Part shown: positions 21,699 through 23,373 of the stretch, in pieces
How positions within the stretch are numbered: the first letter of the stretch is position 1
Layout: each line of letters begins with the position of its first letter
Origin: Candidatus Aenigmatarchaeota archaeon
GTDB lineage: Archaea > Aenigmatarchaeota > Aenigmatarchaeia > CG10238-14 > SCSR01
Reading direction: 5' to 3'
Length of the DNA: 40,609 nt
Assembly (NCBI GenBank): GCA_039000165.1
Contig: JAWBTW010000007.1
Span: 1 to 40,609 of the forward strand
The notes under the pieces: generated by a model
Databases searched by the model: none
Told to the model about the DNA's origin: nothing
Seen by the model: only the letters and a program-made list of their open reading frames with translations
Program-made: the position numbers and the translations under genes

Positions 21699-22175
21699 GT
21701 GGTGAAAATGGATATATTAGCCCATTTTGCGTTGGGTTTATACTTAAGCTTTAAATTTGAAAGTTATTGGCCACTATTTTTCAGTTGTATCTTTGATATA
21801 GACCATATTATTGGATACTTTTACGATAAGAGAAAAAAAACTCTTGTGGAAATTCCTTCATTTCTTCACATAGCCTACAGACCAAGAAGTTGGTTTCACA
21901 GTTTTTGGGGTTTTTTAATCGTTTTAGTTCCTTTCATTTTCTTTTTACCTTTAGAAATTGTTGCAGTTCCTCTAATTCTTCATCTTTTTCTCGACCTTTT
22001 GGATAAAAATGGAATTTTCACTTTTCCACCAATCGTTAGAAAAAAAATAAAAGGTCATTTACCAGTTGGTTATTTGGTCGAGGATCCTGCTTACTTAAAA
22101 ACTCATAAAAGGTCTCACATTCCAAGCCTTTTGGCTAGTGTTATCTTTTTCTTACTGATGATTTTAAGGGTTTGA
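21699..22175 (+). CDS. YdjM-like membrane metal-dependent hydrolase
   Basis: AHF, DIDH, RSWFHS and HLFLD motifs with TM segments. Alternative start ATG 21708. Confidence 0.75.
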   Translation: MVKMDILAHFALGLYLSFKFESYWPLFFSCIFDIDHIIGYFYDKRKKTLVEIPSFLHIAYRPRSWFHSFWGFLIVLVPFIFFLPLEIVAVPLILHLFLDLLDKNGIFTFPPIVRKKIKGHLPVGYLVEDPAYLKTHKRSHIPSLLASVIFFLLMILRV

Positions 22176-22176
22176 C

Positions 22177-22551
22177 ATGGGTTTAAAGTATGCAGCTTTT
22201 CATTGGTTTATTCACTTCTTTCTTGTTTTCCTTTTAGCAAATTTTCTTAATGCTGATTTTTATTCACTTCTTTTAATTTTCTTTTCAAGTGTTTTTATCG
22301 ATTTGGATCATTTACCAATCCTTTTGAAAAAAGGAATAAGAGGGATAATTACTTTCGAAAAACCTAGAAAGTACCTCTTCCACAACTTTTTCTTCTTAGT
22401 TTTTTTCGCCTCTCTTTCAATTTTACCAATCTATTTTCTCCTTAGGCTAGTCTTTTTTTCTTTATTCTTACATTTGATTTGGGACTTGGTTGAGGATGTT
22501 TTAATTTTTAGGTTAGGGACAAAACATTGGTTTTTTAAAAAGAATAAATAA
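22177..22551 (+). CDS. YdjM-like membrane metal-dependent hydrolase, short paralog
   Basis: HWFIH, IDLDH, LFHN, HLIWD. Confidence 0.7.
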   Translation: MGLKYAAFHWFIHFFLVFLLANFLNADFYSLLLIFFSSVFIDLDHLPILLKKGIRGIITFEKPRKYLFHNFFFLVFFASLSILPIYFLLRLVFFSLFLHLIWDLVEDVLIFRLGTKHWFFKKNK

Positions 22552-22567
22552 ATTTATTCAAAGGGAG

Positions 22568-23373
22568 GTGAAAGAAATCCTTATCTGCGGCATGGACGAA
22601 GTTGCTTCTTGCAACGTCAAGCAGGCCGCGGAGCTCTTATTGGACCAATGGTAATTTGTGGTTTGGTAATAGAGAAAAAAGATGAAAAAAAATTGAAGAA
22701 CTTAGGGGTTAAAGATTCAAAAGAGCTTTCGCCAAAGAGGAGGGAAGAATTAGCTAAAATTATAGAGGAAATAGCAAAAAATTTAGTTGTTTTAAGAATT
22801 CCTGCCTGTAGAATTAATAGCTATATGGACAAGAAAATAAACCTAGATAAAATAGAAGCTATGAAGATGGCTGAGATAATTAATATGGTAGACGCAAAAG
22901 TAGTTTATATAGATTCTCTTGGAAACACAAACGGTTCCAAAAATAAGAGGTTCGAGAAACTAATCTTAGAGCATTTAACAAGAAAAAATGTGAAATTGAT
23001 AGTTGAAAATTATGCGGACGAAACTTATCCTGTAGTTTCTGCTGCTTCGATAATAGCTAAGGTAGAAAGGGACAAAGCGATAGAAGAGTTAAAATCAAAA
23101 GTTAATTTTGATTTCGGTGTGGGTTATAGTCATGATCACAGAACAATAGAATTTCTAAAGAAAGTTTTAACAGAATACAAAGAAAGGCCAAATTTCATAA
23201 GGTGGCATTGGGATACCGTTGAAAGTGTTGCGACAAAATTATTAGAAGAGGGCAAAAACTTGCAACCATGGGTAAAAAAAGAAATCCTGGGAGAAAAGTC
23301 TTGGCAGAAAAAAGTAAAAGATTTCTTTTTTAAAAAAGTAAACTGTAAAGAGGGAGAAGATGAAAGTAATTAA
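22568..23373 (+). CDS. rnhB: Ribonuclease HII, split gene: join(22568..22600,22621..23373)
   Basis: Exon 1 gives (V/M)KEILICGMDE and exon 2 gives AGRGALIGPMV...GVKDSKEL...YIDS...ADETYPVVSAASIIAKVERD...GVGY. The joined product restores the invariant DEAGRG motif that the ORF-track call (22609) lacks. Confidence 0.93.
22601..22620 (+). other. Putative 20-nt bulge-helix-bulge (BHB) intron in rnhB mRNA
   Basis: CTGCGGCATG-GACG-AA|G-TTGC-TTCTT-GCAA-CGTC-AA|G-CAGGCCGCGG: a 4-bp central helix GACG/CGTC, two 3-nt AAG bulges, and inner and outer helices. Cutting after bulge nt 2 removes exactly 20 nt. Confidence 0.88.

Follow-up and report, generated by a model that had tools for sequence, protein, structure and literature searches.

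A candidate 20-nucleotide bulge-helix-bulge intron within the catalytic motif of the ribonuclease HII gene of an Aenigmatarchaeota archaeon

The window analyzed here is a stretch of 40,609 nucleotides (nt), contig JAWBTW010000007.1 of assembly GCA_039000165.1, from a tiny hot-spring archaeon of the Aenigmatarchaeota (DPANN). In this window, the gene for ribonuclease HII (RNase HII), rnhB, is broken within the Asp-Glu-Ala-Gly-Arg-Gly (DEAGRG) motif. We consider it very probable, at roughly 85%, that positions 22601 to 22620 form an archaeal bulge-helix-bulge (BHB) intron that interrupts the coding sequence of the one rnhB in the genome, and that this intron is spliced by the transfer RNA (tRNA) splicing endonuclease EndA and the ligase RtcB. 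Most likely, the rnhB messenger RNA (mRNA) would have to be spliced before active enzyme is made. From the anatomy of the gene, its conservation, covariation, and selection, and from the enzymes that the genome encodes, we infer cleavage and ligation; the intron itself may have no function.

The original prediction, made from the letters of the window alone, had placed two exons, three helices, two bulges, and a 5-nt loop at this locus, and every position checks against the sequence. The parts of the gene, with positions counted from the first letter of the window, are the following.

22568-22600, plus strand: rnhB exon 1, 11 codons from GTG 22568, ending with the catalytic Asp-Glu codons GAC GAA.
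22584-22594, plus strand: 5' strand of the outer (exon-exon) helix, partner 22622-22632, 10 of 11 positions paired.
22595-22598, plus strand: 5' strand of the central helix of 4 base pairs (bp), GACG, in exon 1, partner CGTC 22615-22618.
22599-22601, plus strand: 5' bulge AAG, 3 nt, predicted cut 22600/22601.
22601-22620, plus strand: predicted BHB intron, 20 nt, based on geometry, the cut rule, and homologous inserts in 19 other genomes.
22602-22614, plus strand: inner hairpin of TTGC, a 5-nt loop, and GCAA, based on covarying pairs across 20 genomes and on RNAalifold.
22615-22618, plus strand: 3' strand of the central helix, CGTC, inside the intron, partner GACG 22595-22598.
22619-22621, plus strand: 3' bulge AAG, 3 nt, predicted cut 22620/22621.
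22622-22632, plus strand: 3' strand of the outer helix, in the codons of AGRG, partner 22584-22594.
22621-23373, plus strand: rnhB exon 2, 250 codons and the stop 23371-23373, starting at GCA 22621.
22609-23373, plus strand: open reading frame (ORF) of 254 amino acids reported by gene callers, with a TTG start inside the intron and without the catalytic DE.

The outer helix contains one A-G mismatch and one G-U pair. Unspliced, the frame from GTG 22568 runs into TAA at 22652-22654 after 28 amino acids, as predicted. With cuts behind the second base of both bulges, 22601-22620 is excised and DE|AGRG is restored in frame, and the spliced message is predicted to encode the DE-AGRG catalytic motif within a 261-residue enzyme, in agreement with the product of about 260 residues that had been proposed. 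The Asp-Glu pair at the break has a catalytic role in archaeal RNase HII.

The protein family defines the break independently of any RNA structure. When the genomic ORF was searched, exon 2 matched the Pfam family RNase_HII (PF01351) over model positions 6 to 199 of 199 (E 1e-44), and its alignment to two archaeal RNase HII chains of solved structure, 1eke_A and 1io2_A, begins only at their residue 9. Therefore, about 8 N-terminal residues are missing from the exon 2 frame. These residues are encoded 20 nt upstream in another frame, and the first RNase_HII model positions are likewise encoded by exon 1. In the closest intron-less orthologue (genome G012, 71% identical), the same residues run uninterrupted into AGRG, and the public gene call starts at the GTG equivalent to 22568. 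Because a Shine-Dalgarno-like GGAGGTGA at 22563-22570 overlaps GTG 22568, the exact rnhB start codon is uncertain. By eye, a Shine-Dalgarno-like motif, GGTGA/GGAGGTG, lies 6 to 8 nt before the conserved I-L-I-C-G codons in the window and at two related loci (L007 and L011), and some relatives have no in-frame ATG, GTG, or TTG near these codons, where an ATT or ATC start may be used.

The public record for this gene takes it to be a 254-amino-acid protein that starts MQRQ inside the intron and has no catalytic DE. This shortened ORF exists and is what gene callers report, and the message could accordingly be read without splicing, from TTG 22609 or ATG 22648, into an N-terminally shortened RNase HII-like protein whose upstream codons are a relic. 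We judge this very unlikely. The product would be without the catalytic Asp-Glu pair, exon 2 lines up with the solved enzymes only from their ninth residue on, and the genome holds no second rnhB to supply the activity. Because the inserts of relatives fall in every phase, an internal start codon in frame is not a conserved feature. At a synonymous divergence (dS) of at least 1, 20 genomes have nonetheless kept the GxDE codons upstream and the pairing of these codons with exon 2. An exact look-up among public proteins of the forms starting at ATG 22648 or at 22621 found neither.

We determined the distribution of the insert with a pattern of DE, a gap of 10 to 40 nt, and [A/S]GRG...GP. The counts are lower bounds, given the exact pattern and incomplete genomes. 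Among the 118 genomes of the order, 21 matched at this position (site 1) and 20 matches were true, with 2 matches for the reversed-pattern control. The false match, in G114, came from a chance upstream GATGAA with the junction intact. The 20 true cases comprise 18 of the 70 genomes of the family and 2 of the 19 of a second family. The relatives are metagenome-assembled genomes (MAGs) of Candidatus Aenigmatarchaeota, which fits the DPANN-like lineage that had been guessed. Thus, the presence/absence comparison proposed for relatives found a same-site insert in 20 of 118. In the phylum outside the order, 11 of 253 genomes matched, and by eye none was true (6 had an intact junction further on and 5 were unrelated sequence); the reversed control across all 371 genomes gave 12 matches. 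Stops had also been reported in the rnhB matches of G052, G036, and G041 and were set aside; the frame of G052 ends at 236 amino acids, so that its case is read-through of a real stop.

Splicing by the same cut rule gives DE|AGRG, or DE|SGRG in G050, in all 20 genomes. The inserts measure 14, 15, 16, 17, 17, 18, 18, 19 (four genomes), 20 (five genomes), 22, and 23 (three genomes) nt and therefore cover all three phases; in the one of 15 nt, a TGA lies in frame. With these lengths, this stop, and the covarying helices described below, the inserts appear to behave as structured non-coding RNA. The same data bear on ribosomal bypassing or frameshifting over the insert, as in phage T4 gene 60, which a short hairpin-forming gap right after a sense codon might recall. 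No matching take-off and landing codons are present, since the codon ahead of the insert is GAA or GAG and the insert closes with CAA, TAA, or TGA, and no stop codon follows the take-off codon. Inserts of 14 to 23 nt in three phases fit no single frameshift rule, and the features that are conserved, a 4-bp helix and two 3-nt bulges, are those that EndA needs. We regard translation across the insert as highly improbable. Inteins, group I introns, and group II introns were dropped as candidates because each of these is far larger than 20 nt.

The base pairing of the BHB structure was tested on an alignment of the 20 site-1 sequences; because these genomes are kin, shuffles and P values overstate independence. 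Of the cells paired in the BHB structure, 83.8% could pair, versus 30 to 45% when the partners were slid by 1 to 3 columns. The covariation score was 0.279 against a shuffled mean of 0.152, and none of 500 shuffles reached it. Across the 20 genomes the central helix was 98.8% paired, with one pair changed from C-G to U-A in 3 genomes, and all five aligned inner-stem pairs were changed on both sides, so the stem covariation that the original prediction had asked about is present. RNAalifold, supplied with no structure, recovered all three helices (outer, central, and inner) as well as the 5' bulge of 3 nt. In the outer helix, a mean of 7.7 of 11 pairs formed where the intron is present (n = 20) versus 3.8 of 11 where it is absent (n = 15; Mann-Whitney P = 4e-5, among kin genomes), so that this exon-exon helix is retained only in genes with the intron. 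The most canonical BHB among these relatives is that of the window's own rnhB. Rfam 15 gave no match at gathering score in the window.

The cut rule itself could be compared with published and internal examples. EndA cuts between bulge residues 2 and 3 according to Yokobori et al. (2009; PMC2738675), which agrees with the rule used in the original prediction. Three tRNA introns of this genome follow it as well: the anticodon stem serves as the outer helix next to a 4-bp central helix, the bulges read ag|t and aa|a, and the same rule places the cuts at tRNA position 37/38. The genome has one EndA gene, encoding a single alpha-type unit of 188 amino acids with N-terminal and catalytic Pfam domains, and one uninterrupted RtcB gene.

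In the mechanism that we propose, the codons flanking the break would pair in the pre-mRNA to form the outer helix, and the 4-bp central helix would arise between the last four exon 1 bases ahead of the bulge and the 3' portion of the intron, exposing two 3-base bulges. EndA would cut after the second base of each bulge, RtcB would join 22600 to 22621, and the 20-nt intron would be set free, probably in circular form. The DE-AGRG motif and the 261-residue enzyme would be encoded by the spliced message only. The locus combines two opposite 3-nt bulges, a 4-bp helix, flanking helices (10 of 11 positions in the outer and 4 bp in the inner), a predicted functional product, compensatory changes, and EndA and RtcB encoded in the same genome. 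Together with the single rnhB, the covarying inserts of the relatives, and purifying selection on exon 2, these features support the claim that this is an EndA-spliced mRNA intron.

We also asked whether the motif would be expected by chance. The 61-nt stretch folds better than shuffled sequence (z = -2.67; 3 of 200 shuffles as good). A strict genome-wide BHB search with intron lengths of 10 to 150 nt gave 118 matches on 2 x 783,037 positions, or about 7.5e-5 per position; BHB cuts that coincide with a protein break defined by alignment are therefore not expected by chance. Among the short matches of this search, rnhB has the highest G-C pair count.

Several observations weigh against splicing by EndA and RtcB, the first of them from the same scans. 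Run at four settings, with or without an ORF-restoring filter and each with a mirror-image decoy, the scans gave 918 matches versus 929 for the decoy, 118 versus 113, 1779 versus 1827, and 2886 versus 2834, which is no excess; the setting that gave 2886 versus 2834 allowed G-U pairs in an 11-bp helix and so matched low-complexity DNA. Motif geometry alone cannot find introns in this 33% G+C genome, where true sites are inseparable from the decoy. Thus, the genome-wide scan that had been suggested recovered rnhB among its strict matches and yielded no enrichment over the decoy, and the significance of the locus rests on the exact fit to the protein break and on conservation, not on the fold alone. 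In addition, the BHB conformation, at -22.5 kcal/mol, is predicted to lie 2.3 kcal/mol above the minimum-energy fold of -24.8 kcal/mol and to make up about 1% of the ensemble (1.2%), so an enzyme would have to select or stabilize it.

The relatives and the enzyme raise further points of this kind. Only 2 of the 20 genomes form the pair adjoining the 3' bulge (18 lack it), the inner stem is absent in one of the 20, and the outer helix is shifted in five genomes (group g11). The missing bulge-adjacent pair and the shifted outer helix imply that most relatives have a relaxed motif that would need an enzyme of broad specificity. Alpha-type EndA is strict in the classical alpha4 enzymes, and the only EndA of this genome appears to be a single 188-residue unit of that type. 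The kinship of the genomes inflates the counts and P values of the alignment tests. Finally, when RNA runs were looked for among the 8 sequencing runs that hold this DNA, all 8 proved to be DNA. As to the enzyme, alpha4-type EndAs with an extra "L3" loop are described from DPANN lineages rich in disrupted tRNA genes by Kaneta et al. (2018; PMC5829648), and an EndA of this L3-loop type would fit the present genome.

These considerations, namely, a BHB that is not the minimum-energy fold, mostly relaxed motifs in relatives, and an uncertain EndA type, lend something to the view that enzymes other than EndA and RtcB excise the insert or that it is mainly a regulatory hairpin of which a small, controlled fraction is spliced. 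The fit to EndA is nevertheless precise to the single base at two rnhB sites and in cbf5, as described below, and we know of no other RNA-level excision system for inserts of 14 to 23 nt in archaea. We hold this view to be very unlikely.

Whether the insert is real in DNA and the gene is alive could be examined directly. Contigs assembled from runs X1 (perhaps the source sample), X5, and X6, from 2 studies, read across the insert with 0 differences; neither an indel nor a joint was listed. In X5, three contigs end or begin near the border of the intron and exon 2 (22301-22638, 22609-22640, and 22611-23361); the contig at 22609-22640 has about twofold depth, and the arrangement looks like an assembly-graph branch between two strains. 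The genome, which is 91.6% complete, contains one match to the RNase_HII profile, so that no second intact rnhB was found beside this copy. Compared with four species of the same genus, exon 2 has a ratio of nonsynonymous to synonymous divergence (dN/dS) of 0.06 to 0.075 at dS of 1.0 to 1.7, and other pairs of intron-bearing rnhB genes give dN/dS of 0.05 to 0.21. Exon 2 is thus under strong purifying selection, the reverse of the relaxed selection that had been named as a reason to doubt the intron. The unspliced frame does end after 28 amino acids, as it might in a decaying pseudogene or an assembly artifact; independent assemblies from 2 studies, the insert in 19 other genomes, the dN/dS of 0.06 to 0.075, and the status of this gene as sole rnhB contradict both, and we give them next to no weight.

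The history of the intron was examined on an RNase HII tree. On this tree of 38 chosen, non-random sequences (all 20 of site 1, 2 of 9 of the second rnhB site described below, and 16 of many intron-less genes), the site-1 intron requires 11 changes by parsimony, of which at least 6 are forced by well-supported branches. The distribution is patchy, as it is for crenarchaeal cbf5. Because pairing between exon and intron has been conserved, a single origin with repeated precise losses thereafter is favored, although gain by transfer may also have played a part. The site-1 intron would then be old, being common to two families of one order. The intron-less gene of G012 (locus L009) retains 9 of the 11 exon-exon helix pairs and looks like a recent precise intron loss.

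The rnhB intron is not the only candidate of its kind in the lineage. A second insert position in rnhB (site 2) lies 11 nt downstream, inside the Arg codon of AGRG, and a further insert interrupts cbf5 in the same genome as the window.

Loci L094-L102 in G008, G021, G010, G089, G090, G092, G100, G105, and G025: site-2 rnhB inserts.
Contig C1, 46352-46363, of the present genome (G000; locus L064, outside the window), minus strand: 12-nt BHB or bulge-helix-loop (BHL) insert in cbf5, with an in-frame TGA within the TruB_N match.

At site 2, inserts of 30 to 37 nt were found in 9 of the 70 genomes of the family, with 0 matches for the reversed control. The same cut rule gives DEAGRG in 9 of 9, and the unspliced readings hit stops in 9 of 9. 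The central helix is a perfect 4 bp in 8 of the 9, with only 2 of 4 pairs in G090. The inner stems are 6 to 11 bp long and include a compensatory change, AGACAA/TTGTCT versus AGGCAA/TTGCCT. None of the genomes matched both the site-1 and the site-2 pattern, and a total of 29 genomes have rnhB introns at one of these two sites in one catalytic motif. A loop motif, TAAGTCA..TTGATTT, is common to many of the site-2 inserts.

In cbf5, the outer helix of the insert has 6 of 6 pairs, the central helix is CCTT/GAGG, and the bulges read ag|a and aa|a. Once the insert is removed, the frame regains GTLDP, an invariant motif, and the splice falls after the first base of the codon for its catalytic Asp. 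PMC2738675 reports the crenarchaeal cbf5 intron at exactly that point. Every one of the 6 genomes of the genus has the 12-nt insert, and in G019 the insert at this site measures 15 nt; we checked the insert in 5 genomes (this one, three others of the genus, and G019), and G003 and G005 carry only the flag "one TGA inside." In the 5 genomes checked, the loop is variable and the helices are constant.

From the sequences, then, the rnhB intron appears to be one of a few mini-introns of this lineage, together with those of the second rnhB site and of cbf5. The original prediction had suggested a hidden class of tiny mRNA introns; the second rnhB site and the 12-nt cbf5 intron speak for such a class, and 17 other matches to 6 conserved families in this genome (EndA, RtcB, 2 PolB, 7 GTPase-domain, RpoB, and 5 class I synthetase matches) contained no stop or split. 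A tentative and rather doubtful extension is that the Aenigmatarchaeota carry mobile mini-introns of 12 to 37 nt that settle in catalytic-motif codons of nucleic-acid enzymes (rnhB at two sites and cbf5). These would spread in a homing-like manner, by reverse splicing or gene conversion at conserved sequence, as inteins do, and would be lost precisely via spliced-RNA copies. If this were true, production of the rnhB and cbf5 enzymes would depend on the tRNA-splicing machinery.

The closest known system is the crenarchaeal cbf5 intron of the Desulfurococcales and Sulfolobales (PMC2738675). It, too, is a short BHB intron that splits the catalytic motif of a protein-coding gene, with predicted cuts between bulge bases 2 and 3, conserved exon-intron pairing, and a variable interior; likewise, it is patchily distributed with secondary losses, and annotation mis-predicts its gene. 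In contrast, rnhB is another gene, for a nuclease of DNA repair and replication, in another lineage (Aenigmatarchaeota, DPANN). Its site-1 introns are 14 to 23 nt long, and its gene family has two insertion sites 11 nt apart, unlike crenarchaeal cbf5. Splicing of crenarchaeal cbf5 was shown by complementary DNA and in vitro cleavage (Watanabe 2002, Yoshinari 2006, and Yokobori 2009, the last being PMC2738675), whereas that of rnhB is predicted.

Another mRNA substrate of the tRNA splicing endonuclease that is not cbf5 is the BHB intron of Haloferax volcanii HVO_1309 (Schwarz 2020; PMC7714728). That intron lies in the 5' untranslated region (UTR) and interrupts no reading frame, whereas the rnhB intron does. 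The same paper gives cbf5 as the only other BHB mRNA intron reported. Archaea also have non-canonical and multiple tRNA introns (Marck and Grosjean 2003, as cited by PMC2738675), which share the motif, the presumed enzymes, and the size range with the rnhB intron, tRNA introns being 11 to 175 nt long according to PMC2738675. They differ in that their outer helix comes from a tRNA stem, whereas the host RNA of rnhB is a messenger and its outer helix comes from codons. In the literature that we searched, BHB introns in coding sequences were reported for cbf5 only, beside the 5'-UTR intron of HVO_1309, and none was reported in rnhB. By that literature, rnhB would be the second gene with a coding-sequence BHB intron beyond cbf5, and in a distant lineage (DPANN).

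Splicing of mRNA by the tRNA machinery would thus be wider than described, and such introns can be tiny; this genome also has the classic cbf5 intron at the crenarchaeal position and of only 12 nt. These introns have a bearing on ideas of how protein-spliced introns arise, move, and are lost, as well as on the annotation of uncultivated archaea and on metabolic and repair inferences drawn from MAGs. Gene callers hide BHB mini-introns without a flag, and the expectation that standard annotation would mishandle this gene was borne out by its 254-amino-acid, TTG-start call, whose relatives are named "ribonuclease HII" by NCBI with no flag. An xGRG motif lies near the start of 61 of the listed homologues, and in 8 of these no DE comes before it. 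Among the 120 best public homologues (P0001-P0120), 59 have no [A/S]G[R/K]G in the first 60 residues, although a portion of these are likely to be genes cut off at contig ends. Mis-called rnhB N termini could thus be widespread in this group.

Two further observations concern the tRNA introns and the surroundings of rnhB. The tRNA introns at C14:6986-7124, C1:43454-43599, C6:33224-33346, and C9:15028-15146 of the genome (G000), all on the minus strand, contain TGATGA ... CTGA, which resembles the C and D boxes of the guide small RNAs (sRNAs) housed in some archaeal tRNA introns, and ARAGORN with intron search mis-names several of these intron-bearing tRNA genes. Directly upstream of rnhB, two plus-strand ORFs at 21699-22175 and 22177-22551 encode hydrophobic, His-rich proteins of 158 and 124 amino acids with no Pfam match. 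The wider neighborhood of rnhB is ordinary archaeal housekeeping, with genes for aIF2-beta, MCM, TBP, AspRS, diphthamide synthase, and TFB.

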